This document shows positions 1,155 to 55,446 of a DNA stretch of 64,000 bases, in pieces. The stretch lies in sequence record PZ386971.1. One strand, 5' to 3'. The translations under genes were made by a program, and so were the position numbers. The notes below the pieces were generated by a model that did not search any database, was not told the DNA's origin, and saw only the letters and a list, made by a program, of their open reading frames with translations. The first letter of the stretch is position 1. Each line of letters starts with the position of its first letter. The DNA is from a phage.

Positions 1155-2123
1155 TTAGAAGCTATCGCCTTCGGTTTCAAAGCGCCCTTTGTGTAGAGGC
1201 TCCAGTTCGATGAAGGTCATGTCAACCTGCGTGGACACGATACCATCATCTTTGTGAACCGCGTATGAACTGTCCGGCGTCTCGTTGACGAACATGTTGG
1301 AAAGTACACAAGTGGAGATGCGGTGCAGCCACTGGTTACGCTCCCCATTGACCATGAACGTAATGTCGAATGTTGAAGGATGCAAGTAAAACGCGCTGGA
1401 ATTCTTGTTGTACTTGTACTCTGGGTACATATGCATCTTGAACATGCGGATGATCTCACGGACCATCTTGGCTTCCTTCTGAGATCGCGGCGTGAATTTG
1501 AATGTAAATGGAATCTCACGGTTGCGAACACCCTGGAAGATCATCTCCACATATGGGTTGGTCATGGTGCCTGTGAACAACTCAAGGGTGTCATGAGCGT
1601 TAATGCTCGGCAGGAATGGAATAGCCTCCGACGCAGATTGGATAGCCTTGGTGGCAGCGAATCGCCCCATCTCCTTCCCGACGTTGAGCGCATCACCCAG
1701 TTTAAACTGAGTCATGTCTTGGGCGGCGCGGGAAAGGAACTGTGCCCCCATACCAGCCAGCCCCAGCTCGCTACCGTTCCAGCCAACACCATAGTTGGTT
1801 GTAATGTACTCCGGCATACACAGAACAATAGATTCGTTCGAACGAACGTGACGCGCCCATGCATATTTGGTGATGGAACCAGACTTGGACCCATAGACCA
1901 CAGGAGTATTCCCCAGAGGGTTCTGTATTGGGTTCTCGATAGTCTGAGTAGCCGTGTTGCCATAAGATGAACCGGAGATGCGGTTGATGTTGAATAGGAC
2001 ATAGTGTCCCAAGGTCTTACCCCCAGTAACGTCTAGGGGATAAGACAATTGCTTCTGAGCCTGGGACAATCCCTTCGTGTTCAGAACCTTGATCTTATCG
2101 ATTGTCTTCTTGAAGTCGGCCAT
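1155..2123 (-). CDS. putative late/structural protein (possibly baseplate tail-tube initiator/cap-like; weak)
   Basis: 322-aa ORF; CTAAATAg late-promoter-like motif about 33 nt upstream on the minus strand; size similar to T4 gp54/gp48 but no motif verified. Confidence 0.5.
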   Translation of the reverse strand: MADFKKTIDKIKVLNTKGLSQAQKQLSYPLDVTGGKTLGHYVLFNINRISGSSYGNTATQTIENPIQNPLGNTPVVYGSKSGSITKYAWARHVRSNESIVLCMPEYITTNYGVGWNGSELGLAGMGAQFLSRAAQDMTQFKLGDALNVGKEMGRFAATKAIQSASEAIPFLPSINAHDTLELFTGTMTNPYVEMIFQGVRNREIPFTFKFTPRSQKEAKMVREIIRMFKMHMYPEYKYNKNSSAFYLHPSTFDITFMVNGERNQWLHRISTCVLSNMFVNETPDSSYAVHKDDGIVSTQVDMTFIELEPLHKGRFETEGDSF

Positions 2124-2173: not shown

Positions 2174-2788
2174 ATGAGCAACTATCTTCAGGGGAAGTAC
2201 ACCCCGGTTAATCCCAAGAAGTATCAGGGGAATGTGAATAACATCATCTTCCGCTCTTCGCTGGAGTTGGTGGCTTTCAAGTTCTGTGATATGAACTCCG
2301 CGATAGTGAAGTGGTCTAGTGAGGAGACCGTAATCCCTTACATTTCCCCAGTCGACGGGCGCACCCATCGTTACTTCATGGACCTCAAGGTCTGGACGCG
2401 CCGTGAAGGGCAAGAGGAACTACAGGTCACCCTCATTGAGATCAAGCCCAAAGACCAGATCAAGCAGCCGAAGAAGACTCCGAACATGAAGGAGTCGACA
2501 TTCAACAATGCGATGCGAACCTGGTTGGTCAATTCTGCCAAGTGGGAGGCCACCCGCGAACTGTGTGCCAAGAAGAACTGGAAGTTCATTATCTGGACCG
2601 AAGAGCATCTTGTTCCAGGTGAAGATCCGGATGTTCGTAAACAGTTTGAGCTGAAGTCGAAAAAGAAACGGGATATGGAGATGCAAGATCGCCGACATGC
2701 CGAACGTGTCAGGGTGCTGAAGGAACAGATGCGGAAGGAGATTAAACCCGCCCCAACGGAGCGGGATGATGGACTTCTATTACCTTAA
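2174..2788 (+). CDS. putative PD-(D/E)XK-type nuclease (lone plus-strand gene in minus-strand block)
   Basis: 204-aa ORF; D...EIK arrangement (MDLKVW...TLIEIKPK) resembles PD-(D/E)XK core; basic Lys/Arg-rich C-terminus. Confidence 0.4.
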   Translation: MSNYLQGKYTPVNPKKYQGNVNNIIFRSSLELVAFKFCDMNSAIVKWSSEETVIPYISPVDGRTHRYFMDLKVWTRREGQEELQVTLIEIKPKDQIKQPKKTPNMKESTFNNAMRTWLVNSAKWEATRELCAKKNWKFIIWTEEHLVPGEDPDVRKQFELKSKKKRDMEMQDRRHAERVRVLKEQMRKEIKPAPTERDDGLLLP

Positions 2789-14242: not shown

Positions 14243-14264
14243 TATACACCAAATGCTGGAAATG

Positions 14265-14290
14265 AAAAAGAGGCCGGAGCCTCTTTTGTT
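14265..14290. terminator. intrinsic terminator hairpin (bidirectional)
   Basis: gaggc-cgga-gcctc stem-loop flanked by A-run upstream and TTTTGTT downstream. Confidence 0.5.
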
Positions 14291-14315
14291 AACCCATGAT
14301 CATCGCGTTCATGGC

Positions 14316-33748: not shown

Positions 33749-33778
33749 AGAAAGGGGCTTAACGCCCCTTTTCTTATT
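33749..33778. terminator. bidirectional intrinsic terminator between convergent genes
   Basis: ggggc-ttaac-gcccc hairpin with AAA upstream and TTTTCTTATT downstream. Confidence 0.55.
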
Positions 33779-34232
33779 CTTCCCAGAAGTCTTCGTCGTC
33801 CCCGACAGCAGCCAGTTCCGTGTCCAGTTCTTCATCGGTAAACGGTGGCAGCACCCCGTTCTGAATCAGATAATCCATCTCATCATCTTCCAGCTGCAGG
33901 TCGGTGGCAATATACAGCGCTCCGCTGCCCTCTTCGTCCGTCTCGATACTGTACGAAGTGTATGGCACCCCATTCACTGTAATGATGATAGACGTTGGAT
34001 CCTTGGGATCTACGTGCGCCTCGAACGGCACACCATCAATCGGTGCATCTTCTAGGAAGGTAGCAAGTGCTACGGCGGCGCGGACAACATCAGTGCCTTC
34101 AACGCCCGCATAGATCTCTTCCGCGCCTGTCTCTTCACGATCAAACAGCTCAATCGTGATACCGTCTTGAACACCAGTCCATACAGGGATGTCATTGGTG
34201 TATTCTGATTCAAACAATTTGGAGGTTGGCAT
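33774..34232 (-). CDS. hypothetical highly acidic protein
   Basis: 152-aa ORF rich in D/E. Confidence 0.45.
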   Translation of the reverse strand: MPTSKLFESEYTNDIPVWTGVQDGITIELFDREETGAEEIYAGVEGTDVVRAAVALATFLEDAPIDGVPFEAHVDPKDPTSIIITVNGVPYTSYSIETDEEGSGALYIATDLQLEDDEMDYLIQNGVLPPFTDEELDTELAAVGDDEDFWEE

Positions 34233-34376
34233 GTTGGGTTCCTCAGTGGGTTAGCCATATGGGGTATTTAGGCTTCCCGCTTGGCGAGGTCTGGTTTGTA
34301 CAGGACGCCTCTCGGAAATATTGGAGGAAGGTTTTCATAGATACCCCACACGGATTGTATGGGGTATTCAGGAGGG

Positions 34377-40590: not shown

Positions 40591-42369
40591 ATGGCCACGC
40601 AAACAGTCCCTTCACTCGATGTCAGGGCTTTCGAGTATCTTATCAAGAAGCGCATGAAAGCTGATCCAACTTTCAAGGATTATGACTTTGAAGGTTCTGG
40701 TCTCAGTGCAATCGTGCGTATCTTGGCCTCGGATGCCAACTCTATCGGGTTCATGCAGAACATGCTGAATGGCGAAAGCCATCTTCACTCTGCTCAACAG
40801 CGTTCTAATGTCGGTCTTGCGGCCGGGTTCTTGTCGTACACCCCTCACAACTACCAGGCGGCGTACCTGTACGCAAACGTCACAGTCACTCCATATGACG
40901 CCAGCACGGCTCCGGACACGATTATAATGGATCGCCGCGCGATGTTCATTGGGGCGAAGGATGGCAAATCCTACAACTTCACGGTTGACCAACCTGTGAG
41001 TGCCTCTCTTGTAGACGGCTCTTACAAGTTCGAGAACATCAAACTCGTACAGGGCAACTGGCTATACAAGTCCTATGACGTGGAAGGCAGCGCGATCTCT
41101 ACCTATGTGATCCCATCTTCTTCCGTGGACATCGACCATATGGTGGTGCAGGTGCAGGAATCTGAGACATCTGACGTGCGGTCTACCTTCTCACGATATG
41201 TCAGCCCGTTCGATTTGAGCCAGTATGCGCAACTCTACTTCGTTGAGCTGGGGTTGGACGGGATGTATACGTTCGAATTCGGTGATGGGTATATCTGTAA
41301 GCGAGTAGAAGACGGGAACGTCGTGTACCTCCAGTATCTGGAGACAGCTGGTGCGGACGGCAATGACATCACTGCCTTGTCCTCCGCGTCTTCCATCGGG
41401 GGATTCAACCTTGTAGATGTTGAGCTGGTGTCAGAACGTTCTTCCGGTGGTGCGGACCCGGAGAGCATTGAGGACATCAAGCGCCTTGCTCCGCTGGCTT
41501 ATCAGGCTGAGGGTGCGGCGGTAGCTGAAGTCGATTATGCTGTGTTGACCGAGCGTCTGTTCTCCAACGTCTCCCGCGCCAAAGCATATGGCGGAGACAC
41601 GCTCTCTCCGCCCGACTCCGGATACGTTTACATTGCTGTGGTGCCTTCTGTTGGTGAGACGCTCTCGGACGCCGAGAAGGCAGATATCGTGGCGAAGTTG
41701 GACAAGTACAATGTGGGCACGATCACACCCAAGATTGTCGACGCTGAACTGACTTATGTTGATGTCACCACCCGCGTGTTCTGGGATCCGACTTCCACGA
41801 CTTACACCGAAGAGCAGTTGAAGACAGTCGTGAAGAACGGTGTTGTCAACTGGGGCTTGGGGAACCTAGAAGGATTCGACGAACTGTTCGATAAAGAGCA
41901 GTTGCAGTCGGCCATCACCGACATGGACAGATCGATAGTGTCAAACATCACTTCTGTGAAGTATAAGCGCCATTTCAAGCCAGACTATGGGGTACTGGAC
42001 AGCTTCACATTCGATTATGGGCGCTCGATTGCGTCTGGTTCTGTGCGTATCAGTGGGTTTAAGCCGCTTCCGGCCGAGGTCGAATTCACTTACTACATAC
42101 GCGACGTCAGTGGTGTCCTGAATATGTACAAGGTGAGTACAACAGACACGACCAAGGAATATCTGGTACAAGCTGTTGGAATGGTTGATTATGTGACTGG
42201 CGTTGTTGAACTCCAGCGTATCATAGTATCCAACTACAACACTGAGGGTGTGACAATAATTGTGTCTCCAGACGGTCTTGACCAGAACATACAGGCCACA
42301 CAGAATCAGGTGCTCCGCATCGGTGCTGTAACTGTGGAGCCGGAGGTGCGTTATGTCCAAAGATCTTAA
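40591..42369 (+). CDS. baseplate wedge protein (T4 gp6-like)
   Basis: Start at ATG 40591 behind GGAGA; N-terminal DYDFEGSGLSAIVRIL matches a conserved gp6 N-terminal motif as recalled. Confidence 0.55.
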   Translation: MATQTVPSLDVRAFEYLIKKRMKADPTFKDYDFEGSGLSAIVRILASDANSIGFMQNMLNGESHLHSAQQRSNVGLAAGFLSYTPHNYQAAYLYANVTVTPYDASTAPDTIIMDRRAMFIGAKDGKSYNFTVDQPVSASLVDGSYKFENIKLVQGNWLYKSYDVEGSAISTYVIPSSSVDIDHMVVQVQESETSDVRSTFSRYVSPFDLSQYAQLYFVELGLDGMYTFEFGDGYICKRVEDGNVVYLQYLETAGADGNDITALSSASSIGGFNLVDVELVSERSSGGADPESIEDIKRLAPLAYQAEGAAVAEVDYAVLTERLFSNVSRAKAYGGDTLSPPDSGYVYIAVVPSVGETLSDAEKADIVAKLDKYNVGTITPKIVDAELTYVDVTTRVFWDPTSTTYTEEQLKTVVKNGVVNWGLGNLEGFDELFDKEQLQSAITDMDRSIVSNITSVKYKRHFKPDYGVLDSFTFDYGRSIASGSVRISGFKPLPAEVEFTYYIRDVSGVLNMYKVSTTDTTKEYLVQAVGMVDYVTGVVELQRIIVSNYNTEGVTIIVSPDGLDQNIQATQNQVLRIGAVTVEPEVRYVQRS

Positions 42370-43207
42370 TAACGGACACAATGGGGTGAAATATGAAACC
42401 CCATTGTTTTACCAGAATGAATTCCCAGTATTCATCGAGTTTATGGATACGTTCTTCAACTGGTTGTATCGCCAGCAGGGATTCACCGAAGAGGAGATCT
42501 TGGCGTATCTGGCAGACACTGGTGGCTGGGTGAACCCAAATACGGATCAGTCTCCTATTGAGCAGTTGATTGACATCAAGAAGCGCAAGACGCCAGGTAC
42601 TGAGGCCAAAGACTTCTTGGAAGACAAGTTCCTGACGCGCACGTTTGAGAACATGATGGCGCTAGACTTCGAAGATTTGCTGGACGTGGACGGTCGGCCA
42701 TTAATCTCAATGGAAGACAAGAACGAACGCATCGACGATTGGTATGCTGATTTTGGATTCCAGAGAACGGTTGATAAGTCCTTCCTGGAGTTCGGGAAGT
42801 TTGTGCCAGTTGGTTCGGACAGTTTGGTGACTTCAGACGGAGACACTCTCTCTGTGTATGTCGAGGGAACTGAACGCCGGACACTGGACCATGTACGCTG
42901 GTTGAAGTTACTTAAACACATTTATCGCATTCGCGGGACGAAGAAAGCGATTGAATTGTTCTTCTGGATTTACTTTGGTTGCCCAGTGAGTGTGTATTAT
43001 CCCAAGGAAGAAATTGGTGGCCTGGATGACAACTTTGAATGTGACGGCGCGACAGGAATGCGTGACGATTACTACTATGATGAATTCACGTATGTGATAA
43101 GAGTTCCTGGCAACGTATCTGATTTTGAAGGTGTGTTTGATCGCGTCTTCCGTCAGCATTTCCATCCTGCTGGGTTTACTGTATTCCTAGAAAGTTCAAG
43201 GAGTTAA
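42353..43207 (+). CDS. putative baseplate-associated structural protein
   Basis: 284-aa ORF overlapping the gp6-like gene end and abutting the tail-fiber gene. Confidence 0.45.
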   Translation: MSKDLNNGHNGVKYETPLFYQNEFPVFIEFMDTFFNWLYRQQGFTEEEILAYLADTGGWVNPNTDQSPIEQLIDIKKRKTPGTEAKDFLEDKFLTRTFENMMALDFEDLLDVDGRPLISMEDKNERIDDWYADFGFQRTVDKSFLEFGKFVPVGSDSLVTSDGDTLSVYVEGTERRTLDHVRWLKLLKHIYRIRGTKKAIELFFWIYFGCPVSVYYPKEEIGGLDDNFECDGATGMRDDYYYDEFTYVIRVPGNVSDFEGVFDRVFRQHFHPAGFTVFLESSRS

Positions 43208-43209: not shown

Positions 43210-44400
43210 ATGGCCGATTTTCTGAGTCGATACACAGGTCAGCAGATTGATGCAATCCTTTCTTCTGTTGACGATAAAATAAGCAAGACTGATGTTGTCA
43301 ACGATTTCGCTGTTGATGATCCGTTGTTCCCTCCTTCAGCTCATTTGACATACGAGCTGAAGCGTTCTGTGGATAAAATCTACGACACACTGGAAAACAA
43401 AGTGATCCGCACCGACGGTGGTGAACAAACGATCAACGGGAACAAGACCTTTGCTGCGTTATTGACAGCCAACGGCGGCCTGACTGTTCCGGCTGGGAAG
43501 AAACTGTCTATCGCGGATGAGCCTATAGTAGCGACAGATGGTGTTAACCTGAGCATGTTGAGAAAGCATGGTGTCAGTGAAGACACTACCCCGCCTGGTT
43601 CTGGTTTGGCTGGGGAGTTGTTGACATCCGGATATTACAAATTCAATTTGGATTTCACCAGATTGTCTGCGTATACCGGATCAACGTTGCCGACTTCAAT
43701 TCCAGTACAAACAGATTCTGGAGCGCGTTATTGGACAATGACTGCATTTTTTGATGCGTTGTTCGCAGACAACCGATTTAATGGATATGTGACAACGACA
43801 GCGTATGACGCAGATATGCTGAGTCTAGAGTCCCAGATTAATAACATCAACACATCGTTGAACGGGAAAGTCAACACATCGACTTACAACACTAAGATGG
43901 CGTCGTTGGATTTGAGTATCTCCAATATCAATACGTCTCTGGGTAATAAAGTCGAGGTCAGCACGTACAACACGAAGATGACATCTCTGGATAACAGCAT
44001 CAGTTCTCTTTCCAGTGATAAAGTTAATGTATCAACGTATAATGCCAAGATGACCTCTGTCGACAATAGTTTAGGGAACGCCGTTTATCGTACCAAAACG
44101 AATTTGTCTTCTTACACGGTTTCGGCTTCTGGGACGACGGCTCTTCCAGATTTTGATTTGGTGAACCTTTGTCAAATACTGGTGACCGCGCAATGGGGAA
44201 CAGGTAACGTTGTTGATACATATCGAGTAACCATAACTCGCGACGGAACTATCAAATCGGAGTTGTTGGTTCAGAAAAGTACGAGCGGTACAGTGACGTT
44301 CACAGGGGCTGTGGTGGGTGGTAAATTGAGAATTTCCGTTGTTAATGCGAATACAACAACTGCTTGTTCGGTCGATTATTCTATTGTAGCTTCTTTCTAA
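43210..44400 (+). CDS. tail fiber protein with internal tandem repeats
   Basis: N-terminal fiber-like segment (VIRTDGGEQTINGNKTF); three tandem ~21-aa repeats (NINTSLxxKVxxSTYNTKMxSLD). Confidence 0.6.
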   Translation: MADFLSRYTGQQIDAILSSVDDKISKTDVVNDFAVDDPLFPPSAHLTYELKRSVDKIYDTLENKVIRTDGGEQTINGNKTFAALLTANGGLTVPAGKKLSIADEPIVATDGVNLSMLRKHGVSEDTTPPGSGLAGELLTSGYYKFNLDFTRLSAYTGSTLPTSIPVQTDSGARYWTMTAFFDALFADNRFNGYVTTTAYDADMLSLESQINNINTSLNGKVNTSTYNTKMASLDLSISNINTSLGNKVEVSTYNTKMTSLDNSISSLSSDKVNVSTYNAKMTSVDNSLGNAVYRTKTNLSSYTVSASGTTALPDFDLVNLCQILVTAQWGTGNVVDTYRVTITRDGTIKSELLVQKSTSGTVTFTGAVVGGKLRISVVNANTTTACSVDYSIVASF

Positions 44401-44408
44401 AGTGAAAA

Positions 44409-44417
44409 CTAAATACC
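44409..44417 (+). promoter_or_regulatory. candidate late promoter (CTAAATAcc) with downstream leader hairpin
   Basis: Motif followed by perfect inverted repeat tacccta...taggggta just upstream of ATG 44453. Confidence 0.4.
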
Positions 44418-44452
44418 CCTAGATGAAACGAACACATTTAGGGGTATTTGAA

Positions 44453-47400
44453 ATGGCTAATAAACCAACACAGCCTGTTTTCCCTCTCGGTCTGGTGGCT
44501 GAAGAGCAGTCTACTTTGGCTGGTGTCGTCAACAAGGGTACGATTGAGCATGGACCAGATGCTGTCCTGACTTTACCCGAGGGTAATGCCAGCGCAGGAC
44601 TCCCGTCTTCCGTTCGCTACAATGCCGACTCCGACGAATTTGAGGGCTTCTATGAAAATGGTGGATGGTTGCCGCTGGGTGGCGGTGGTATCCGCTGGGA
44701 AGTCCTTCCGCATGCCTCTACGGTAATGCTCACTGAAGGGCGAGGCTATCTCATTAATAATACCACAGGGGCATCTACAGTGGTTCTCCCTTCCCCTACG
44801 CGTATTGGGGATTCCGTTACTATTTGTGATGCTTATGGGAAATTTGCCACTTACCCATTGACCGTGTCTCCTTCTGGAAATAATTTGTATGGCTCCACTG
44901 AAGACATGGCTATAACAACTGATAACGTATCAGCAACGTTCACTTGGTCTGGGCCTGAACAAGGTTGGATTATTACATCCGGCGTCGGTCTTGGCCAAGG
45001 CCGTGTCTACAGTCGTGAAATCTTTACAAAAATTTTGGCGTCTGAAACAAGTACTGTCACTCTCAATACTCCACCAACAATCGTGGACGTGTATGCTGAC
45101 GGAAAACGCCTTGCGGAATCCAAATATTCACTAGATGGGAATGTAATCACTTTCAGTCCTTCTTTGCCAGCCAGCACAGAACTTCAGGTGATTGAATATA
45201 CTCCTATTCAATTGGGTAATGGCGGTGGTTCTAGTTCTTCTACGATTACTTGGGTCTATAATGGGGGTTCAGCGATTGGCGGTGAAACCGAAATCACGTT
45301 GGACGTCGTTGTTGATGATGTTCCGGCCATTGATATAAACGGAAGTCGTCAGTATAAAAATCTGGGATTCACATTCGATCCATTAACCAGTAAAATCACT
45401 CTGGCGCAAGAACTGGAACCAGAAGATGAAGTTGTTGTAATTATCAATGGAACACCAAACATCTATAATCAAATTGATCATACTTTGCGGGAAGTGGCTC
45501 GTGTAACCAATGTTAAAGATACAGAGGTCGTTTATTTTAGTGTTGGTGCTGTGCTAAGCGGGTATAAAGTTATCTATGATAAAGTAACACAGAGATCATA
45601 TTTTATTCCAGAGCTACCGACTGGAACCACGGCAGTCAGCCTTAGTTCTTCGGCTGTACTTGTGCATTCTGCTGGTAGTGTTGATCTGGGCGCATTAGCC
45701 GTATCTCGTGAGGAGTATGTGACCTTACCTGGTTCATTCGATACAGGTGTAACTGTTAATACCAAGAATGAGTTGGTTGTGAGTAACGATATTAAATATC
45801 GTTGGGATGGTTCTGTACCCAAAGTAGTCCCTCCAGAATCTACCCCATTGGGTACAGGAGGTGTTGGTCCAGGGGCATGGCTTGTAGTTGGTGTTGTTGG
45901 ATTAGAGCAACGTTTAGCCTCCTGGAAAGGTTCTTCTCTTATTGATTCCGGTAGTCTGTCTCTTTACAAAAAGAGCGGTGTATTCGGTGATGGTGGGAAT
46001 GTATCCGATAAATATCAGGTTGTTCTACATTCAGATGGGTTCTGGTACAAGTACAATGGGACACTACCTGTTAGTTATGGTGCTGCCCCAGACTCTTCTT
46101 GGACTAACGTTGGTAAGCTAACAGGGTTTAATGAACACTCACCTGAGAATTTTGGTGCAATCCCCAATGACCCTAGTTTTGACTGTTTACCTGCTATAAA
46201 ACTAGCTATAGCCACAGGTACATTAAATCTGAATGGGAATTCTACCTACCACGTAACGGATGAGGTTGTTATACCTTCTTACTTACGTGGGAATCTAAAC
46301 GGGGCAACAATTAAAGCAATTGGCTCCGTATGGCCTACGTTAAAAGCTGTTGTACGCGTTAGTAAATTTCCTGTCGGTACAGCAACAGTGGATGTGGCTA
46401 ATACAGAGAATCAAGTGCGAGGATTACGCTTAATCGGTAGCTTAAACGTAGACTGTGCAGATATTGCATCATATGGTTTTTATGCACGTCTTCTGTGTGC
46501 AGAATCTGAGATGGGTAGCATCTATGCATATAATGCTAATAGATATGGCATTGTAATGTTTGCTTGCTGGTATTTTCAAATGGGCACTCTCCATGCAAAC
46601 AACTGTGCAAGGGGTATGGCATTAGGTTATTCAACAGAAGGTGAGCAAGGGGATACCTATGTGAATGCTACACACTTCCCTCACATTAGTGCATGGGGTA
46701 CTGATAAGTCTACGGGACTAGGTTATGACCCAATCACGGATGATGCGAGTAAATATACAATAGGTGCTGGTATTATCTTAGGTCGTGGTTTGTCTACCAG
46801 TGTTGGTGTGATTTGCTCTGAGAATACGGCAGGTGCTGGGGTAGTAACAATGGACCCTGCTGCGTGGGACATTGGGGTCATGTACTGTGAGGGTAATAGT
46901 AAAGACTTTACTCAAGAGGGTGAACCCAAGGTGTCATTGCTGTCATCCAAGGCCAACAGTGAAAGTCATACGCTTACCATCTCCACACTCCACCTTTCCG
47001 CAGGTTGTGGCATTTTAACCAGAAGCAATCAAGAGCGTGTGCTAATCAGAAGTCTATATCGCTTTGATAACGCAAAAACCTTCCACTCTTACTGCACAGC
47101 AGACACAGTAGAGGTTGGTAGCAGCAACTACTATGTACTTAACGGGCATAATTACAATGCACCTGCTGCACTTATTAAGGAACCGCTCAATGTAGACTTT
47201 GTGCGTTCAGGGTTGACTTTAAGTGAGTGGACATCTACAGTTATCGGTCATTTTGCTGGTAGTACAGCAGAACAACAGCTTTATGTTAAGCTCCCAGCAA
47301 GTCCCAGCGGCCTAGATTTACAGATAGATAGTGAGGATGGGACGGAATATATCACTGTAACTGGTACAGATTTTAAAGTCTCTCTAACTAAGAAAAGATT

Positions 47401-47506: not shown

Positions 47507-47513
47507 TATAATA

Positions 47514-47542
47514 AAAAGCCCCCAATTTTGGGGGCTTTTATT
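47514..47542 (+). terminator. intrinsic terminator after tailspike A
   Basis: gccccc-aatttt-gggggc hairpin then TTTTATT. Confidence 0.6.
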
Positions 47543-47570
47543 ATATAGAGTTTACTGTTTTCATTACCCT
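47536..47570. repeat. conserved ~35-bp element downstream of tailspike terminators (copy 1)
   Basis: ttttatatagagtttactgttttcattaccct; near-identical copy at 55206-55240. Confidence 0.5.
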
Positions 47571-47762
47571 GATTGATAATGCTGTTGGCTCTCTCGGGTT
47601 GTCATCAAACGGGTATAAGAACTTTATAGGTGATATCAATGATGGGTCAGCGTATTTTTATTTCGCCAACATAGATGGATCAAGAATATCGGGGTCGTCT
47701 GTTTATGATGGGTGGGGTGATGTTGGTATACATTTTGAAATGTGTCTGGAATAGGAGTGTCA

Positions 47763-47857
47763 AACCCCGCTTTGGCGGGGTTCTTATTATACCTTTGTTC
47801 ATAAATTTGATTAGTTCAGACTAAATACTCCATATTGGTCATCCTTTATGGGGTATT
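47763..47857. repeat. repeated cassette-boundary module (hairpin + late promoter + leader hairpin), copy 1
   Basis: About 95 bp, roughly 85% identical by eye to 50741-50832, immediately upstream of tailspike B. Confidence 0.6.
47821..47829 (+). promoter_or_regulatory. candidate late promoter (CTAAATAct)
   Basis: Within repeated module, 32 nt upstream of ATG 47861. Confidence 0.4.
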
Positions 47858-47860
47858 ATC

Positions 47861-50290
47861 ATGATTTCTCAATTCAATCAACCACGCGGCTCCACTTCCA
47901 TAGAAGTTAACAAACAATCTATCGCTCGAAATTTCGGTGTCAAAGAAGACGAAGTCGTTTATTTCACTGCTGGTATTGATCTCAGTGGATTTAAAGTAAT
48001 TTATAATGAGTCTACCCAACGGGCTTATTCTCTTCCTTCAGGTATTGTTTCAGGAACGACTGCGATAAGTCTGGATAAAAGAGCTATCCTCACTCATTCA
48101 GCGGGTTCTGTTGATCTTGGGGAATTAGCAGTAAGCCGCGAAGAATACGTAACCTTACCTGGTTCATTTGATACTGGTGTAACTGTTAATACTAAGAATG
48201 AATTAGTTGTCTTTACCGATGGTAAGTATCGCTGGGATGGGGCACTGCCTAAAGAAGTGCCTGCTGGTTCAACCCCTACATCAACCGGTGGTGTTGGAAC
48301 AGGTGCATGGGTTAGTGTTGGTGATGCGAGTTTGAGGTCAATAGCTCAATACAGAGCCAATACCATTGAAGATTTAAAATCATTGCCATTTGCGGTTGGA
48401 GATATTGTTAATGTCGCTGGGTATTATGATGTTTTTGATGGGGCACAGCATTACCGAGTGATTAGTGGTACAGATGATGGAACAGGGGTTCAGCTCAATA
48501 ATGGTTTGTGGGCAAATATTATCATTAATGGCGATGCTTGTGTAGATTGGTTTGGCGCTAAAGGTGATGGTGTTGCAGATGACTGGTGGGCAATCAATAA
48601 AGCTATTAACGCCTCGCTCTCTACCGATTATCAGGGTGGTTGGTGGGAGACGTCAAGTAGAAACCCTAAATTTAAAGTTAGACTTAGTAGACGCTCTTAC
48701 AGAATCACTAAACAGATTTTACTACCCCCTTACATAGAGTTTTATGGTATGGGTTCGCGCTGGTATTTTTCGGGTGATAATAATTCTCGCTTAATCCCTG
48801 ATTTTGATAATCCGTTGCAATTCGCTGTGAAATCTGCTAGCTATATTGTTGAAACCGGTGAACTAGCACCTGAGGGGTGGTATTCTGGGGTGGTTTGGGT
48901 TGACCCAAAAAAACTAACGACTTGTCATGGTATTAAAACTTATGGATATAGCATCGAACCAACAAAACAAATTTTAGGCGGTATAAGACTGATAGCGAGT
49001 CCAATTTCTCATGTATACGATATATTCATAACAAATGTTGATTTTGGAGTTTTACTGAATTGTTCATGGGTGAGTAAGGTTGACGTTAAAACTCATCATA
49101 ATAAATGCGGGGTTATGTCTAGTCATGATGGTAATAACACTCACGTGGATGGTTATTTTACAGGGACAGAAATCAAACCGCTTGATGGTAATCCTTACCT
49201 CAACCCAATAGAGTCTTTAGACTCTACAACAGGGCTCCAAGACCAATCTATATCTGACCCAGACAGTAAAATAGGTGTGATTTTTTATTGGTCACAGGGG
49301 TCAACAAGTACGAATATGACGTGTGAGGGTAACACTATTTCGTTGGCTGTGGCTAAGGGTGGTGCTGATGTAAGGTGTTTATACTCAGAACGTAATTCAG
49401 ATTGTACATTTACTGGGTACAGTTCACTAGTTACAATTGGTGAAATAACTGGCATTGGTGACGGTGGAACTTTTGAGCTTGGTGTAAATAATACTATTTC
49501 GTTAGACAAAGACACTCAGTATGGTGTCGCTAAACGATTTAAGTACGTGAGCGAGTGGGGTAATAAGCTGTTTATGCCCTCTAGCTGGAAAGAATACACC
49601 AAAGGTTGTTTAGTTGAAGGGTTTGATTATAGCGAAATTTTTGTAGATGCGATAAATGGAGATGACACCAATGTTGGCTCCAGTCTTCACCCTGTGAAAA
49701 CTTTGGAGAGAGCTCTAACGCTTGTGAATTCAGTGTATACTACATCTGACTTGCTAAGCTCAGTGCCGAGGGATAGAGTAATAAAGTTAGTAGGCTCAGC
49801 AACATACTACCCAGACGGACAGCATAGGTTCGTGGGCGGCTCGTTAAAAATTACAAAAGCTGATAACTCACGACCGACTGTTAATTTATCAAAACCAATC
49901 CGATTTAACGACACATCCCTAGTATTTGAGGAAGTAAATTTAGTGCGACCAACAGATGACCACGGGAATAATGAGAATGGCGCAATTTTCCTTGAGGATG
50001 GGTGTAATGAAGTCAGATTGAAAAACTGCGATCTAAGTCTACAAAAATTCAGCTTCTTATATCCTACTTGGGGCTTTGCTGGAATATGTACCTTGGTGTT
50101 AAACGGGGTTAGTGTTACTGGTGATTCAACAACAAGAATGATACAAACAGCTGATGGATATCATGATTTGCACTTGTTTAATGTAATTAGCTACGAGACA
50201 ACTTACACTGGAGGAATAGAGTCAAGACCAGATAAAGGCTATGATATACCAGCAGATAGACGTGGTCATATATTGGGTGTATCAATATAA
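47861..50290 (+). CDS. tailspike protein B (shared N-terminal module + pectate-lyase-like beta-helix)
   Basis: Shared module at aa 20-150; WFGAKGDGVADDWWAINKAI resembles the beta-helix depolymerase entry motif. Confidence 0.65.
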   Translation: MISQFNQPRGSTSIEVNKQSIARNFGVKEDEVVYFTAGIDLSGFKVIYNESTQRAYSLPSGIVSGTTAISLDKRAILTHSAGSVDLGELAVSREEYVTLPGSFDTGVTVNTKNELVVFTDGKYRWDGALPKEVPAGSTPTSTGGVGTGAWVSVGDASLRSIAQYRANTIEDLKSLPFAVGDIVNVAGYYDVFDGAQHYRVISGTDDGTGVQLNNGLWANIIINGDACVDWFGAKGDGVADDWWAINKAINASLSTDYQGGWWETSSRNPKFKVRLSRRSYRITKQILLPPYIEFYGMGSRWYFSGDNNSRLIPDFDNPLQFAVKSASYIVETGELAPEGWYSGVVWVDPKKLTTCHGIKTYGYSIEPTKQILGGIRLIASPISHVYDIFITNVDFGVLLNCSWVSKVDVKTHHNKCGVMSSHDGNNTHVDGYFTGTEIKPLDGNPYLNPIESLDSTTGLQDQSISDPDSKIGVIFYWSQGSTSTNMTCEGNTISLAVAKGGADVRCLYSERNSDCTFTGYSSLVTIGEITGIGDGGTFELGVNNTISLDKDTQYGVAKRFKYVSEWGNKLFMPSSWKEYTKGCLVEGFDYSEIFVDAINGDDTNVGSSLHPVKTLERALTLVNSVYTTSDLLSSVPRDRVIKLVGSATYYPDGQHRFVGGSLKITKADNSRPTVNLSKPIRFNDTSLVFEEVNLVRPTDDHGNNENGAIFLEDGCNEVRLKNCDLSLQKFSFLYPTWGFAGICTLVLNGVSVTGDSTTRMIQTADGYHDLHLFNVISYETTYTGGIESRPDKGYDIPADRRGHILGVSI

Positions 50291-50740
50291 ATAATTGATA
50301 TTATGCTTCATGGTGATTGTGGGTGATTCACCCACGATTACTTTTAGGTACTACAGTTGATAATTCAGATTGATACATTGGATTGGCAGGTGCGTGTAAT
50401 ACTGCACTTGAATTTTGATACATAAATCCGGCACCCTCCCTCACCCTCAACGCGCCCAATTGCCCCCATAGGAGGCTCATTACCTCCTTGTGGGCTTTGT
50501 TGTTTTTGTGGCTGCTGTTGCTGACTACATTCTATGTATGGATGTATCTCATCATACTAAGCATTATCTAAGAGCCATCCTATGATACGACCCCATTGGG
50601 ATTCCTAACTTCACAACTACGGTAATATTATGAATTAATCAGGTGAACTGCTCCTAGTCAGACTGGAGGAACGATTGAAGACTCTGTTTGATAATCAGGC
50701 AAGGGATAGATAGGATCGTGGTTTTGGAGAGTAAAATCAA

Positions 50741-50832
50741 AACCCCTCTTCGGCGGGTTCTTGTTATACCTTTGTTCATAAATTTATTAGTTCAGACTAA
50801 ATACCCCATATTGGCAAATCCTCTATGGGGTA
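50741..50832. repeat. repeated cassette-boundary module, copy 2
   Basis: Near-duplicate of 47763-47857 immediately upstream of tailspike C. Confidence 0.6.
50797..50805 (+). promoter_or_regulatory. candidate late promoter (CTAAATAcc)
   Basis: Followed by leader hairpin taccccata...tatggggta and ATG 50841. Confidence 0.4.
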
Positions 50833-50840
50833 TCTTCAAA

Positions 50841-53177
50841 ATGACCAGAAACGTCGAGAGCATCTTTGGAGCGGTCGTAACAGCTCCGCACCAGATTCCA
50901 TACACTTACACAGCAACGGGTGGAGAGAAGTTTATCTCCCTCCCTTTCTACCCTGTCACTGGTATAGTCACAATCAACGGTGGCATGCAAGTTCCGTTAG
51001 ACAACTTTGAAATCGATGGAAATACGTTGAATCTCGGACGCGCATTATCCAAAGGTGACGTTGTGTTCTGTCTGTTTGATAAGATTCTGTCTCCAGAAGA
51101 TTATAAAACCGGGGTTCGAATCTATAAGTTTCAGGCTATAGGAGGTGAAACCGAGTTCACTCCTGATTACACATATTATGGAGTCCAATCTCTTTATATC
51201 GGTGGTGAGTACAAAACACCCGAAATTGAATATTCCTATGACAGCACGACAGGGAAAGTGTCTTTACAAACTGCGCTGACTGCAGGCGTTTGGGTAGTCG
51301 CTGAAATGTCTGTTAAACAACCGAATATCAGTCCGTTGTTTGACCGAAGTATTCAAGAAATCGCCCGTTCAACTAATGTAAAAGATTCTGAAGTAATCCT
51401 TAGTACGGATACTTCTCAGGTACTTAATGGTAAGAAAATTATTTACTCTGTTAATGAGCAGAAGTCTTATGGTTTACCGGTATTACCTACTAACGTTTAT
51501 ATTCAGTCTGTTGTTAACGGGAAGCTCACATACAATCCTGGTTCTGTGGTTGTAGATTTACTCTCTGTACCAAGTGAAGCACTTGAAGCAGTTAATTTAA
51601 TTAAAACCAATTTACTTAGTGAATCGGGTGCATCTTTGGTTGGGTATACAAAACCCTATACTGGTGCAGTTAAACGTCTTGCTTCTGATTACTTTAATCA
51701 GGAGATTAACGTTGATGACTTTGGTGCATACGGTGATGCATATCTTCTTAACGGCACTGTAAACCCAAATCGCCATGATGACTCTGCTGCATTCCAGAAG
51801 GCATTGATTGCTGCTTATCGAATTGGTGGTGCTAAGGTTGTAGCTACTCCTTGGAAGAGTTATTACATTGCCAACAAGGTATATGTACTAGCTTCCGAGT
51901 CCGGTTCCGATATTGAAGCACCAGTTTTCCCTAAACGTCGTATCCAGTTAATTGATTTACAGGGTGCTACCATTGTTGGACAGGATGATACATCTAACAC
52001 CAGTAATGTGTTTATGGAGACAGGCTATATTACTAGTACTGGTTCTGTAGCTTCCGTATTTGGTAAAGGTGAGGAAGAGTATTTAACCATTGGTACATGT
52101 GTGCGAAATGCTACGCTGGTAAATTTCTACCAAGGCTTCCGTTTCCGTGACCATGTTTTTGGTTGTGAACTTACCGATATTGTAGGACAAGATGTGCAGC
52201 AGCTTCTTTATACTCGTCGCTGTTTCTACTCGCTGTACCGTAACTTACAATGCAATGGTAGTTTTACTACTGGCTTGCATCGTTATGACATTGGGGATGA
52301 AGTGAATATTCAGCCTCTGATTTCGGTCCATACTGGCGAGTGTGACGTAGGTATTAAGTTCACTGGGGCAGTTGAAGCACTGACTCTCTTTAACTGTGGT
52401 ATTGAAAGTTTCCGCACACATGGAGTATGGATTGCTGGTGCTTACAATATTAAGTTCGATTCTTGTTACTTTGAATCGAATCACCCTAATGTGTACGGTT
52501 GTATCGCTACCAGTGCTAATAACATTACATTGGATAATAACTGGATTTATGGTTCATCTTTTAAGATGTTCGGTGGGTTTGATGACAACACTAATGTCAG
52601 AATGCACCCTAATAACCGTATAGGGGGTGGAGCAGTTTGGTGGGATCTTAATGAAGGCTCCCCTTATAACTTATCTGACTTACACTTCCCTACTGACATA
52701 AAAGCTGGTGGTAATACCTTACCCGTAGTTAGTGCCAAGGAAGCTAGTACTGTAAACCAGACTATTACTTTCTATGACCCTAATTTAGGTTTGTCCTCAA
52801 TAGTTGGTAAAGCAGAGCAAACTAACCGTTTCCACCCACAACGAGTAAATGGTCAGATGAGCATCGGTAGTACTGCATCTTATACAGTTGGTGCATCTAC
52901 AACCACTGAAGTAGTTGGAAATGATACCCGAGTTAAGTGGACTACCCAAATAAGATATTCTGATACACAGTTACTGTATGTAGCACTTAAGGTAGATAAC
53001 AACTTAGGAACCTGGTTCTGGTTAGGCCATGTTGTAGGTGATACAGCTAAAGCCTTACTTACCAGTGATGAAAACAAACCCCCTGTAGTTACTAATGAAA
53101 ATGGTTATGTAACTATAACCAGTCCACTACTTGCTACCCCTATTGCAATTCATGGTGGTGAGATTCGTATACTGTAA
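50841..53177 (+). CDS. tailspike protein C (divergent copy of shared module + beta-helix-like domain)
   Basis: Start set at ATG 50841 downstream of promoter (track ORF began at 50688); DDFGAYGDAY...SAAFQKALIAA motif. Confidence 0.6.
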   Translation: MTRNVESIFGAVVTAPHQIPYTYTATGGEKFISLPFYPVTGIVTINGGMQVPLDNFEIDGNTLNLGRALSKGDVVFCLFDKILSPEDYKTGVRIYKFQAIGGETEFTPDYTYYGVQSLYIGGEYKTPEIEYSYDSTTGKVSLQTALTAGVWVVAEMSVKQPNISPLFDRSIQEIARSTNVKDSEVILSTDTSQVLNGKKIIYSVNEQKSYGLPVLPTNVYIQSVVNGKLTYNPGSVVVDLLSVPSEALEAVNLIKTNLLSESGASLVGYTKPYTGAVKRLASDYFNQEINVDDFGAYGDAYLLNGTVNPNRHDDSAAFQKALIAAYRIGGAKVVATPWKSYYIANKVYVLASESGSDIEAPVFPKRRIQLIDLQGATIVGQDDTSNTSNVFMETGYITSTGSVASVFGKGEEEYLTIGTCVRNATLVNFYQGFRFRDHVFGCELTDIVGQDVQQLLYTRRCFYSLYRNLQCNGSFTTGLHRYDIGDEVNIQPLISVHTGECDVGIKFTGAVEALTLFNCGIESFRTHGVWIAGAYNIKFDSCYFESNHPNVYGCIATSANNITLDNNWIYGSSFKMFGGFDDNTNVRMHPNNRIGGGAVWWDLNEGSPYNLSDLHFPTDIKAGGNTLPVVSAKEASTVNQTITFYDPNLGLSSIVGKAEQTNRFHPQRVNGQMSIGSTASYTVGASTTTEVVGNDTRVKWTTQIRYSDTQLLYVALKVDNNLGTWFWLGHVVGDTAKALLTSDENKPPVVTNENGYVTITSPLLATPIAIHGGEIRIL

Positions 53178-53228
53178 TTACACAGCCCCCTTAACTGGGG
53201 GCTACCATAGAAAAACAATGAGGTTTAT

Positions 53229-55145
53229 ATGAACGAAATGTTCTCACAAGGTGGTAAAGGCTCCACTGGTATTCTTACCAATAAACAAGCCATTGCTCGT
53301 AAGTTTGGTGTTAAGCAGAACGAAGTAGTTTACTTTTCTGTAGGAGTAGACTTGGGTGGATACAAAGTCATTTATGATAAGGCTACTCAACGTGCTTACT
53401 CACTACCTGCAAATATTGCCCCAGGTACTATTGCTACTAGTCTTAGTGCTAATGCTGTACTTGTTCATTCAGCTGGTTCTGTAGATCTTGGGGAATTAGC
53501 CGTATCTCGTGAAGAATACGTTACATTGTCTAGGTCGTTTGACACTGGTGCTACACTTAATGTTAAAAATGAATTGCTTACCCATACAACAGGTAAGTAT
53601 CGCTGGGATGGCGAGTTACCTAAAACCGTTTCTTCTGGCTCAACTCCTGAAAGTGCTGGTGGTACTGGGTTAGGCAAATGGGTTAGTGTTGGTGATGCAG
53701 CCTTGAGAATCAATCTTGCATCTGATGATGGCGCTGGTCTGGTCGGATTTAAGTCACCTCTGGCCAACTCCATTAAGCGAACACTACATGATAAAAATAA
53801 AGACCTGGTGTCAGTCAAGGACTTCGGGGCTGTTGGCGACGGTGTGACCGATGATACCGCCGCGTTTCAGGCAGCAATAGATTCGAAAAAGAGTTTATAC
53901 ATACCGGATGGTATTTATCTTATAAGCTCTACTTTAATCATAACTGCCACTGATAGTCTATGTATTGTTGGTAATAGTTTTGGACATGTTAATGACCAAA
54001 CAACAGGTTCAGTAATTAAGTTTACCGGGTTAGCGTCACCCGCCATTCGGGTTCAAGGTGGTGCGATAGGAGCTAAGATTTCTGGACTTTTTCTGGATAT
54101 CCAGGATTCATCATCTGATGGCTTTGATTTCGGTGGGGCTTGGTATTTAAAACTTCAAGATTGCGTTGTCAGAAACGCTCGATATGGGGTCTATTTACAT
54201 TACGATAGCCCAGACTATTTTTCCGGAGTAGCTGAACTAACTTCATGCTATTTCGCTAAATGTGCAAATGGTGTAAAAACGTCAAAGGTAGATATCAACG
54301 TAGTTAAAGTTGATAATTGTACTTTCTTTGATGGTGTTAACGGTGTTCTTATCGGAGACTCAGGTACTGCAAGTAGTGTACGAAATTTCATAGTCAGAGA
54401 CTCTCTATTTGAAGCAAACACGGGCTATGACGTAGGTGTTGTCGCCGGGGGTGCACAGCAGTTACTGGTAGATGGTAACTACTTTGAAGAGAATACTGCT
54501 TCTTCTTTAGCCAGGGTATATGTTACAGATGATAGTCACTCACCGCGTTCTTCTTCTGTTTCAATAACCAACAACACGTTTAGCAAAGATACGACAGGCG
54601 ATCTTATTTTCCTGTCTGGTATTTCCGGTGTTCTTGTTAAACAAAACTGGTCAGCATTTGGGGGTATAGGTTTTGTAAGGGCTATTAATATCGACAATTA
54701 TGAGATAGATAGATGCTCTACCGTATCTGGAGCAACAGCCTGTAATGTTGTTATAGATAACGTCTTACAAGTACCTGACACTTCTGTTAATAAGATTTAT
54801 ATTAACAAGGCCCAAGAATACGCGTTTATCGGGACTTCCGTCGTAAAAAGGTCGAGTGCATGTACACGGGCAATGATCAATTTTAATGGAATTTCGGGGT
54901 CGTCAGTGTATGCGGATGGAGCAACTGTAACTAAAACCGGGACCGGTAAATATACCGTCAACCTATCTAATACTATGCCCTCCTCTGCTTATGCTGTTTT
55001 ATGCAGTGTTGGCAATACCACTAGCGGAGGGAAATTAGTAATTAATGTCGTAAGTACATCCCCTGACTCTTTTAACTTAGAAGTTTTTGACCTTTCTGGA
55101 TCGTATCAAGATTCAGGATACATATCTGCCGCAGTTGTTATGTAA
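53229..55145 (+). CDS. tailspike protein D (shared N-terminal module + pectate-lyase-like beta-helix)
   Basis: Shared module at aa 20-150; VKDFGAVGDGVTDDTAAFQAAIDS beta-helix entry motif. Confidence 0.65.
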   Translation: MNEMFSQGGKGSTGILTNKQAIARKFGVKQNEVVYFSVGVDLGGYKVIYDKATQRAYSLPANIAPGTIATSLSANAVLVHSAGSVDLGELAVSREEYVTLSRSFDTGATLNVKNELLTHTTGKYRWDGELPKTVSSGSTPESAGGTGLGKWVSVGDAALRINLASDDGAGLVGFKSPLANSIKRTLHDKNKDLVSVKDFGAVGDGVTDDTAAFQAAIDSKKSLYIPDGIYLISSTLIITATDSLCIVGNSFGHVNDQTTGSVIKFTGLASPAIRVQGGAIGAKISGLFLDIQDSSSDGFDFGGAWYLKLQDCVVRNARYGVYLHYDSPDYFSGVAELTSCYFAKCANGVKTSKVDINVVKVDNCTFFDGVNGVLIGDSGTASSVRNFIVRDSLFEANTGYDVGVVAGGAQQLLVDGNYFEENTASSLARVYVTDDSHSPRSSSVSITNNTFSKDTTGDLIFLSGISGVLVKQNWSAFGGIGFVRAINIDNYEIDRCSTVSGATACNVVIDNVLQVPDTSVNKIYINKAQEYAFIGTSVVKRSSACTRAMINFNGISGSSVYADGATVTKTGTGKYTVNLSNTMPSSAYAVLCSVGNTTSGGKLVINVVSTSPDSFNLEVFDLSGSYQDSGYISAAVVM

Positions 55146-55160
55146 GTAATAATCACTTAA

Positions 55161-55195
55161 AAACAACCCCACTTCTATGGGGTTGTTTTTACTTA
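55161..55195 (+). terminator. intrinsic terminator after tailspike D
   Basis: aaacaacccc...ggggttgttt 10-bp stem then TTTTTAC. Confidence 0.6.
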
Positions 55196-55205: not shown

Positions 55206-55240
55206 TTTTTATATAGAGTTTACTGTTTGCATTACCCTAA
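55206..55240. repeat. conserved ~35-bp element downstream of tailspike terminators (copy 2)
   Basis: tttatatagagtttactgtttgcattaccct, matching 47536-47570. Confidence 0.5.
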
Positions 55241-55404
55241 TCGATACAGCAGTTAAGGTAATAGTCTGACCTGATATATTAAACATACCTAATTGAATAC
55301 CATCTACCATGAATGGCAGAGGTCTCGAATCCATGACCATAACCACAGAAAGATAATCAAAGCCCCTTCGGGCTTATTTCTTTCTATTCCTCGGTTGGTT
55401 GTAT

Positions 55405-55413
55405 ACTAAATAT
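55405..55413 (+). promoter_or_regulatory. candidate late promoter (CTAAATAtc)
   Basis: About 34 nt upstream of ATG 55447. Confidence 0.35.
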
Positions 55414-55446
55414 CTCTATAATGGCACCTATCGATGGAGCATCAAA

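Follow-up and report, generated by a model that had tools for sequence, protein, structure and literature searches.

Organization of the tailspike locus

The 64,000-nucleotide stretch of DNA analyzed here (record PZ386971.1, referred to below as the window) contains the tailspike (tsp) locus of an Agtrevirus-like Ackermannviridae phage. Its closest overall matches are the Escherichia phages LHE287, YX22, and AV101, the Enterobacter phage fGh-Ecl02, and the Shigella phage Ag3. The subject of this study is a non-coding cassette of approximately 100 nucleotides (nt) that is duplicated ahead of two of the four tailspike genes, together with the long intergenic gaps of the locus.

All four tailspike genes are encoded on the plus strand. 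TSP A, a tailspike of the TSP4 type, has a probable true start at ATG 44453 and ends at 47506. It is followed by TSP B (TSP3 type, 47861-50290), TSP C (TSP2 type, 50841-53177), and TSP D (TSP1 type, 53229-55145), and then by a VriC-like gene on the same strand that starts with ATG 55447. The gaps that follow TSP A, TSP B, and TSP D measure 354, 550, and 301 nt, in agreement with the 354, 550, and roughly 300 nt given when the locus was first described from its sequence (the original prediction); the gap between TSP C and TSP D is just 51 nt.

Some database records place the start of tsp2 at an ATG inside the leader hairpin described below (MGYLQM...). In the window, this codon (ATG 50825, within the leader hairpin of TSP C) does not share the reading frame of TSP C, and this favors ATG 50841 further downstream (MTRNVE...) as the true start of the gene.

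A duplicated cassette upstream of TSP B and TSP C

When the locus was aligned to itself, positions 47762-47857 upstream of TSP B matched positions 50739-50834 upstream of TSP C with 86 of 98 alignment columns identical (87.8%) and four gap columns. Over the coordinates first proposed for this repeat, 84 of 96 columns are identical. Each copy is laid out in the same order, with a GC hairpin and T-run, a 38-nt conserved spacer, a late-promoter motif, and a leader hairpin. A 22-nt core of the spacer has exactly two occurrences in the 64 kb, compared to none expected from shuffled sequences.

In copy B, the first hairpin (47763-47782, plus strand) reads AACCCCGC-TTTG-GCGGGGTT followed by CTTATTAT and resembles an intrinsic terminator. 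Its stem of 8 bp has a predicted energy of -15.3 kcal/mol and includes six GC pairs, and five T were counted in the 8-base tail window of the scan. The AT-rich and highly conserved spacer (CTTATTATACCTTTGTTCATAAATTTGATTAGTTCAGA, 47783-47820) leads to the late-promoter motif CTAAATACTCC at 47821-47831, which is one mismatch away from CTAAATAcCcc. The leader hairpin (47824-47857, -16.6 kcal/mol, z-score -3.8) overlaps the promoter motif with its 5' arm, AUACUCCAUA. Its 3' arm, UAUGGGGUAU, ends 4 nt before ATG 47861 and contains a GGGG ribosome-binding site located 7 nt before this ATG.

The hairpin of copy C (AACCCCTCTTCGGCGGGTT, 50739-50759, plus strand) is degenerate in this phage (-6.6 kcal/mol, z-score -0.96). 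Its spacer, delimited by alignment with copy B, spans 50760-50796 and is followed by the late-promoter motif CTAAATACCCC at 50797-50807, an exact match to CTAAATAcCcc. The leader hairpin (AUACCCCAUA / UAUGGGGUAU, 50801-50834) is as strong as its counterpart in copy B (-16.3 kcal/mol, z-score -4.4). The original prediction had described near-identical sequences of about 95 bp, each with a GC hairpin and T-run, a CTAAATAc motif, and a leader inverted repeat. The repeat, the motif, and the leader fold were all recovered in both copies; the hairpin with its T-run was recovered in copy B and is degenerate in copy C.

Two other identities for the cassette were considered and rejected. With respect to a sigma-70 promoter, no plus-strand site was found in either copy, and promoter-like matches overall were as numerous as expected from shuffles. 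The minus strand of the spacer does display a perfect TATAAT by eye, without a convincing -35 box. A genome-wide repeat or mobile element was discarded on the basis that the spacer occurs just twice in the window and that the cassette is limited to genomes of about 150-160 kb, the size of Ackermannviridae.

The late-promoter motif and transcription units

The sequence CTAAATAC, present in both cassette copies, has five exact matches in the 64 kb compared to an expectation of 0.92. All five are on the coding strand and lie 14-45 nt upstream of the start of an open reading frame (ORF). CTAAATAcCcc is published as a regulatory motif of the former Viunalikevirus genus (PMC7283392). In the annotation of phage LIMEstone1 (HE600015; PMC3296691), the orthologous TAAATA cores ahead of gp6, the tsp genes, and VriC carry the label 'putative late promoter', which fits a repeat with the anatomy of terminator, late promoter, and leader. 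Homologues of the T4 late-transcription proteins gp55, gp33, and gp45 are encoded by Ackermannviridae (PMC3184105). By analogy with T4, CTAAATAcCcc would be a promoter consisting of a -10 element only and read by a gp55-like late sigma factor. The GC hairpin and its T-rich tail would serve to stop transcripts arriving from the upstream tailspike gene.

The promoter and leader of TSP A (44409-44450, plus strand) are built like those of the duplicated cassettes, but the stem sequence differs and the duplicated spacer is absent. An CTAAATACCCC motif at 44409-44419 is combined with a 16-bp leader hairpin at 44410-44450 (-21.0 kcal/mol, z-score -7.7). The promoter-and-leader design is also present at the VriC-like gene, where the duplicated spacer is likewise absent, at a 216-aa gene at 61917, at gp6 (40545), and at a 31-codon ORF on the minus strand at 34371. 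At the VriC junction (55360-55447, plus strand), a hairpin and T-run (55360-55375) are followed by CTAAATATCTC at 55406-55416, the leader, and ATG 55447. This is the third terminator-to-late-promoter junction of the tailspike locus.

Strong hairpins with a bidirectional appearance follow two of the tailspike genes on the plus strand. One is located after TSP A (47514-47540, -23.5 kcal/mol, z-score -5.6) with A/U-rich flanks, and the other after TSP D (55158-55191, -19.2 kcal/mol, z-score -6.6). The short C-D gap contains a hairpin without a T-run (53184-53203, plus strand), and no late-promoter motif was found in its 51 nt upstream of TSP D. The leader of TSP D (53207-53228) is homologous to the orf12-orf13 junction of Gamaleyavirus. 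TSP D is probably co-transcribed with TSP C. Since it has no promoter motif of its own, transcription is not reset before every gene, contrary to what had been proposed.

Late-promoter-like motifs were also observed elsewhere in the window. On the minus strand at 34200-34400, two are arranged in tandem. The first, CTGAATACCCC (34371..34361), has an 11-bp leader hairpin (-17.2 kcal/mol) and precedes the 31-codon ORF that starts at about 34338. The second, CTAAATACCCC (34271..34261), precedes a 152-aa ORF (34232..33774) and has no hairpin. At 2130-2175, a palindromic, back-to-back pair of TAAATA sequences lies before divergent ORFs (2174..2788 on the plus strand and 2123..1155 on the minus strand) and may be a bidirectional late promoter region.

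Leader hairpins and the ribosome site

In five leaders, namely those of TSP A, TSP B, TSP C, the 216-aa gene (-10.2 kcal/mol), and the 31-codon ORF, the hairpin begins inside TAAATA and its 3' arm covers a GGGG or GGAG ribosome site. The z-scores of these five folds range from -3.2 to -7.7. In the duplicated cassettes, the promoter-proximal ATACCCC pairs with the GGGGTAT of the ribosome-binding region; GGGG is the annotated ribosome-binding site in phage Maynard. The stems vary from gene to gene yet remain complementary (CCCCUAGAUG/CAUUUAGGGG, CCCCAUA/UAUGGGG, CCUUCA/UGAGGG, and CCCCAUAC/GUGUGGGG).

This pairing was quantified over 23 distinct late-promoter leaders. The 13 promoter-proximal nt bind the ribosome-site region of their own leader at -9.4 kcal/mol compared to -5.4 ± 0.6 kcal/mol for other leaders, and none of 20,000 permutations was as low. 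An arm-only alignment of nine leaders, hand-built from the predicted stems, had 95.6% of its cells paired and four of ten stem pairs changed on both sides, with a covariation score of 0.447 against 0.189 ± 0.037 in shuffles. A covariation analysis of orthologous TSP4 leaders with MAFFT and RNAalifold was uninformative, with an invariant 5' arm and a misaligned Bue1 sequence.

With the spacing known from T4, where the -10 element ends at about -6, a late transcript would begin about 6 nt after TAAATA and thus inside the 5' arm. An RNA that begins there would form no hairpin and could be translated. A read-through RNA would contain the whole hairpin, so its ribosome site would be masked or the RNA attenuated. 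In folding models of read-through RNA, the ribosome site is approximately 0-15% unpaired in four of five contexts. In models of RNAs begun 6 nt after TAAATA, the energies are -3 to -9 kcal/mol and the site is approximately 40-50% unpaired. The T4 genes e and I-TevI offer a documented precedent for a leader with its promoter inside a hairpin (PMC3014915).

A more far-reaching proposal, which we advance tentatively, is that the 'cCcc' of CTAAATAcCcc is not part of the promoter and instead represents the arm that pairs with the Shine-Dalgarno sequence. The family would then embed its late promoters in masking hairpins before tailspike, baseplate, and neck genes, and, in combination with the terminator ahead of it, each tailspike slot would be an insulated unit with a crossover site like that of the promoter-early stem-loop (PeSL) elements discussed below. 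If so, each gene would be translated only from its own late transcript, and the combination of an insulated, plug-and-play slot with a crossover role would explain why the cassette is the best-conserved DNA of the locus.

The leader inverted repeat could also act without any masking, either as a second attenuator or terminator for upstream transcription, as a stem-loop that stabilizes the 5' end of the mRNA, or as an element at the level of DNA. PeSL stem-loops, which may lie across or behind the -10 box, can act as terminators (PMC2839356), and the cores of the leader hairpins are GC-rich and followed by U-rich runs (UAUUAUC, UAUUUGAAAU). These tails are poor U-tracts, however, and in the five leaders the 3' arm is always positioned over the GGGG or GGAG ribosome site. 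By analogy with T4 (PMC3014915), a start inside the 5' arm would mean that the hairpin could not cap the 5' end of the mRNA. Taken together, a role unrelated to the ribosome site seems improbable.

Conservation of the cassette among relatives

The cassette was identified in 208 phage records, mostly at two places per genome. All of these are genomes of about 150-160 kb, consistent with the size of Ackermannviridae; the taxonomy was checked for part of the records. A search of IMG/VR for further diversity returned mostly the same set of about 19 genomes.

Compared to six Kuttervirus genomes, the cassettes are 93-97% identical. Identity is 83-88% in the adjoining N-terminal coding parts and 71-77% in gp6, g284, and VriC, which belong to the backbone. 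Against Kuttervirus, the two cassettes are therefore the best-conserved DNA of the tailspike locus. The same range of 71-77% applies to gp6 and g284 at 40591-43207 and to VriC at 55447-57500, and the identity rises to 87-88% from a 396-aa gene through the TSP4 N-terminus (43210-45480). One possibility is that genera exchanged the entire anchor region at a later time than the backbone.

The two halves of the cassette differ in their distribution. Ahead of tsp2, the core (CTAAATACCCC, the leader, and the ATG) is shared by Kuttervirus, Agtrevirus, Limestonevirus, Taipeivirus, and Bue1. The half composed of the hairpin and spacer is present in Kuttervirus and in a subset of Agtrevirus (this window, AV101, YX22, and LHE287). 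In Kuttervirus, a third copy of the CCCCGC-TTYG-GCGGGG hairpin of cassettes B and C lies ahead of the VriC late promoter; in other lineages, this position is taken by GC hairpins of different sequence, also with T-runs. Taipeivirus duplicates a hairpin-and-promoter unit of its own before two tsp genes. In every lineage, a GC hairpin with a T-run is located 10-45 nt upstream of the late promoters of the tsp genes and VriC, and the hairpin sequences differ. A terminator-like hairpin followed within 10-45 nt by a late promoter is thus a family-wide punctuation of the tailspike locus.

Breakpoints and hybrid cassettes

Homology blocks shared with other genomes begin at 47762 and at 50739-50741, which is the left edge of each hairpin, and extend into the N-terminal coding parts as far as about 48327 and 51412-51545. 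The Kuttervirus homology of cassette B also starts at 47762. In Kuttervirus, 0-10 nt separate the hairpin from the stop codon of the tsp gene upstream. As a result, there is no long gap, and the variable unit is exactly the receptor-binding domain up to the stop codon. Other breakpoints differ in position: that of YX22 copy C falls just past the hairpin, and those of bering and Marshall tsp3, fGh-Ecl02, and Ag3 coincide with the promoter. The receptor-binding parts and their 3' flanks are often replaced and the cassette is kept along with the 5' ends of the anchor regions. The cassette is thus the first conserved DNA to the right of the variable segment.

The two copies can be told apart by five diagnostic sites: the hairpin variant, CTTATTAT versus CTTGTTAT, a leader loop of TCAT versus CAAAT, CCTTT versus CCTCT, and the last bases before the ATG. 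Hybrids were found in three relatives. LHE287, which has three tsp genes and no tsp3, carries a single cassette that is B-type from the hairpin through the leader loop and C-type at its 3' end. The tsp3 leader of fGh-Ecl02 is the reciprocal of this hybrid, and copy B of YX22 has a C-type hairpin. These hybrids indicate that copies B and C have recombined. Judged from its sequence, the arrangement in LHE287 is what a crossover between B and C that deleted (or inserted) tsp3 would leave behind.

The cassette is not the sole crossover site, as demonstrated by the Salmonella phage maane (L006, 6406-9879). Here, a crossover within the TD domain, a coding repeat of 243 nt, has joined the tsp4 N-terminus to the P22-like receptor-binding part of tsp3, with loss of cassette B and of the tsp3 N-terminus. 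In the window, a TD coding repeat of about 180 nt occurs at 45665-45846, 48095-48276, and 53466-53647 with 66-77% identity, directly upstream of the receptor-binding parts of TSP A, TSP B, and TSP D. The TD repeat is the left-hand homology tract and complements the cassette on the right. A role for the cassette in recombination, which the original prediction had expressed as a linker, is consistent with the breakpoints at its left edge and with the three hybrids, though exchange is shared with the coding repeats.

From these data, it could be argued that the cassette is purely regulatory, an old duplication of a promoter region maintained by purifying selection, and that the real crossovers occur in the longer coding repeats. 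The coincidence with mosaic boundaries would then reflect the free variation of everything to the left, namely the receptor-binding domain and an unselected flank. The retention of the core promoter and leader in all genera with an optional hairpin and spacer fits this explanation, as do the maane crossover and the literature, which assigns tailspike exchange to conserved 5' ends and to the TD domain (PMC11414711, PMC10791037). Nevertheless, the three independent hybrids put crossovers inside the cassette, the breakpoint of YX22 copy C falls just after the hairpin, and selection on a -10-only promoter would hardly explain a cassette identity of 93-97% beside a backbone of 71-77%. A purely regulatory cassette is therefore considered unlikely.

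Origin of the long gaps and the second element

A second repeated element had been noted after the terminators of TSP A and TSP D. It is real, with 42 of 49 positions identical (85.7%) between 47538-47586 and 55206-55254, and at 49 nt it is longer than the 35 or so first estimated. Both copies directly follow a strong terminator hairpin. In G7C-like podophages (Gamaleyavirus), a convergent gene, orf14, lies directly downstream of the tailspike gene, and relics of it were identified on the minus strand at both positions. The relic after TSP D (55316..55209) comprises the last 36 codons with 89% amino acid identity over 36 aa (E 7e-16) and contains the element copy 55206-55254. The relic after TSP A (47651..47541) is a decayed 3' end that still terminates in ...TVNSI* and is weakly matched (37% over 38 aa); its first 49 nt are the element copy 47538-47586. 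By alignment, the second element is the 3' end of a decayed, minus-strand orf14-like gene of Gamaleyavirus origin instead of the terminator-associated regulatory motif that had been suggested.

The gap between TSP B and TSP C is of mixed origin. The receptor-binding part of TSP B and 213 nt of its 3' flank (48233-50503, plus strand) are 95-96% identical to gene 238 and flank of the Phapecoctavirus ukendt, and the flank includes an imported terminator at 50312-50342 (-20.5 kcal/mol). Further downstream, 50532-50720 (plus strand) is a relic of the divergent orf14/orf15 region with 89% nucleotide identity to the Gamaleyavirus Bp4; within it, 50630-50719 (plus strand) encodes the first 30 residues of orf15, an N4 gp63-like protein, with 80% identity. 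Just terminal fragments of orf14 and orf15 are left with no intact ORF, and for this reason they are regarded as relics. Fragments of orf14 of 61-81 codons also occur in YX22, LHE287, and fGh-Ecl02, and orf15 fragments occur in AV101. None were found in Kuttervirus, Taipeivirus, Ag3, EspM4VN, or CRW-SP2.

Two further sequences provide additional observations. In ukendt (L023, MN850565, 9001-11947), a TSP1-type N-terminal fragment (ukendt_239) lies about 320 nt past the common flank, accompanied by the leader sequence found upstream of TSP D. By its sequence, the block evidently moved from one phage family to another and took part of the next gene with it. A metagenomic, N4-like contig (L017, IMGVR_UViG_3300018472_000003, 9584-14385) encodes receptor-binding parts related to those of TSP D (87.7% nucleotide identity) and TSP A (82.5%); an orf15 homologue comes directly after its two tailspike genes, and orf14 is missing.

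The remaining gap DNA at 47652-47761 is common only to AV101, from position 47670. A plus-strand ORF (47599..47754) stops 8 nt before the cassette hairpin, as the tsp stop codons do in Kuttervirus, and the region may be a remnant of a displaced or earlier receptor-binding domain. A comparison of 47587-47761 with the C-terminus of TSP D-like proteins gave only a match of seven residues (ISGSSVY, E 0.2), and there was no database match.

The long gaps are thus scars of foreign imports that carried their 3' flanks along, and not linkers built for the purpose as the original prediction implied. Once present, the orf14 relic could act as a right-hand homology arm for exchange with G7C-like phages. 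It is very improbable that the gaps hold a functional small gene or non-coding RNA with the second element as its promoter or regulatory site. Terminator hairpins do bracket the gaps, a sigma-70-like match (TTTACT-18-GATAAT) is located at 47551-47580, and some records annotate small ORFs in the gaps. However, promoter-like matches are no more numerous than in shuffles, no small ORF in the gaps is conserved beyond AV101, and a search of the locus against Rfam identified no family at threshold, the sub-threshold matches being terminator look-alikes. Moreover, the second element aligns in frame to the C-terminal end of orf14, and the 61-81-codon fragments in relatives follow the pattern of a decaying pseudogene.

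A probable composite cassette for expression and exchange

Considered as a whole, the data make it likely that the duplicated sequence is a composite regulatory cassette placed before the fixed N-terminal anchor parts of tsp3 and tsp2, that it doubles as a homology tract for exchange, and that the gaps are passive. With its putative terminator, promoter, and leader, the cassette would enable each tailspike slot to be expressed from its own promoter whatever cassette lies upstream. Together with the coding TD and N-terminal repeats, it would supply homology for exchange, deletion, and conversion, and recombination of this kind may have selective value. The gaps and the second element would be passive DNA that arrived with imported receptor-binding domains, composed of relics of orf14 and orf15 and of a Phapecoctavirus-like flank that includes a terminator.

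Several points weigh against this interpretation. The hairpin and spacer are absent from Ag3, fGh-Ecl02, EspM4VN, CRW-SP2, and LIMEstone1, and they are also missing at tsp3 of bering and Marshall; the left half of the cassette is therefore dispensable. The copy C hairpin is intact in Kuttervirus but degenerate here. Conservation of the 38-nt spacer equals that of the promoter, and the composite model offers no reason for it. Late-promoter leaders without a hairpin occur at VriC, at the 152-aa gene at 34271, and at Taipeivirus tsp1/3. The covariation count leans towards structure because its arms were taken from predicted stems, and since the 5' arm is the nearly invariant promoter motif, the inner stem and the paralogous leaders are the sole sources of covariation. 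The positions of promoters, terminators, and start sites follow from the analogy with T4, and the searchable literature yielded no data on where transcripts of the family start or end. Finally, the hybrids prove past recombination and not selection for recombination, and the longer coding repeats (the TD domain and N-termini) are at least as probable as sites of crossover (PMC11414711). The most fitting view of the cassette is that of a conserved, insulating unit of expression at which crossovers have also taken place.

The tailspike genes of Ackermannviridae are being swapped to engineer host range. For each slot there appear to be a separate terminator, late promoter, and leader, and this informs which non-coding bases to keep and where homology arms fit. 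Direct repeats that flank tsp3 can delete the gene between them, which bears on the stability of engineered constructs. The relics provide evidence at the nucleotide level that Agtreviruses infecting E. coli have repeatedly taken tailspike DNA and flanks from G7C-like podophages and phapecoctaviruses.

Comparison with known systems

The closest parallel to the cassette is PeSL, a class of short composite terminator/promoter motifs of T4-like phages that are repeated beside plastic genes and mediate modular shuffling (PMC2839356, Arbiol et al. 2010; PMC4122927, Comeau et al. 2014). Both are short intergenic cassettes that join a stem-loop terminator, a promoter, a Shine-Dalgarno site, and a start codon, with one stem-loop that overlaps or follows the -10 element. 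Both are repeated within one genome beside its most plastic genes. Recombination between PeSL copies gives replacements, insertions, and deletions; for the tailspike cassette, the comparative evidence consists of the hybrid B/C copies and the breakpoints at its edge. The differences are equally clear. PeSL contains a sigma-70 early promoter with -35 and -10 boxes and AT-rich upstream DNA, whereas the tailspike cassette contains the late, -10-only CTAAATAcCcc. PeSL is present in about 50 copies in hyperplastic regions upstream of ORFans, and the tailspike cassette in two or three copies confined to the tailspike locus, where it flanks essential structural genes. Mini-circles form between neighboring PeSL copies, and none are known for the tailspike cassette. 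Since the sigma-70 early promoter and the numerous copies in hyperplastic regions are defining features of PeSL, the cassette is regarded as a late-promoter variant of the tailspike locus and not as a member of PeSL.

The leader resembles those of T4 gene e (lysozyme), soc, and I-TevI, in which the ribosome-binding site is sequestered by a hairpin whose 5' arm contains a late promoter (PMC3014915). As with gene e and I-TevI, a T4-type late promoter in the 5' strand is combined with a ribosome-binding site in the 3' strand, and folding models predict that only promoter-proximal transcripts would be translatable. In contrast to T4, where late genes lie within early units, the genes here are late structural genes downstream of other late genes, and an additional terminator is located upstream. 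The tailspike design, as read from sequence and folding models, would extend the mechanism of gene e to late structural genes in a way that can be tested.

The promoter motif itself was already known, since the Viunalikevirus motif and the LIMEstone1 (HE600015) annotation describe the same motif at the same position before the tsp, gp6, and VriC genes. The accessible part of that literature lists the motif alone, without the duplicated cassette of about 100 nt, the pairing of cCcc with the ribosome site, or a role at cassette boundaries. Tailspike domain swapping was also known. Modular exchange at the N-terminal XD/TD domains (PMC8432352, PMC11414711, PMC10791037) shares with this locus the fixed anchors and variable receptor-binding domains and includes swaps within the family and with other phage families, G7C gp63.1 and gp66 being kin to these tailspikes. 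No mention of the intergenic regions was found in the searchable literature on Ackermannviridae tailspikes. What the present analysis adds to the work on tailspike exchange is a non-coding right-hand boundary, nucleotide-level relics of orf14 and orf15 in the gaps of Agtrevirus, and a Phapecoctavirus-like 3' flank.

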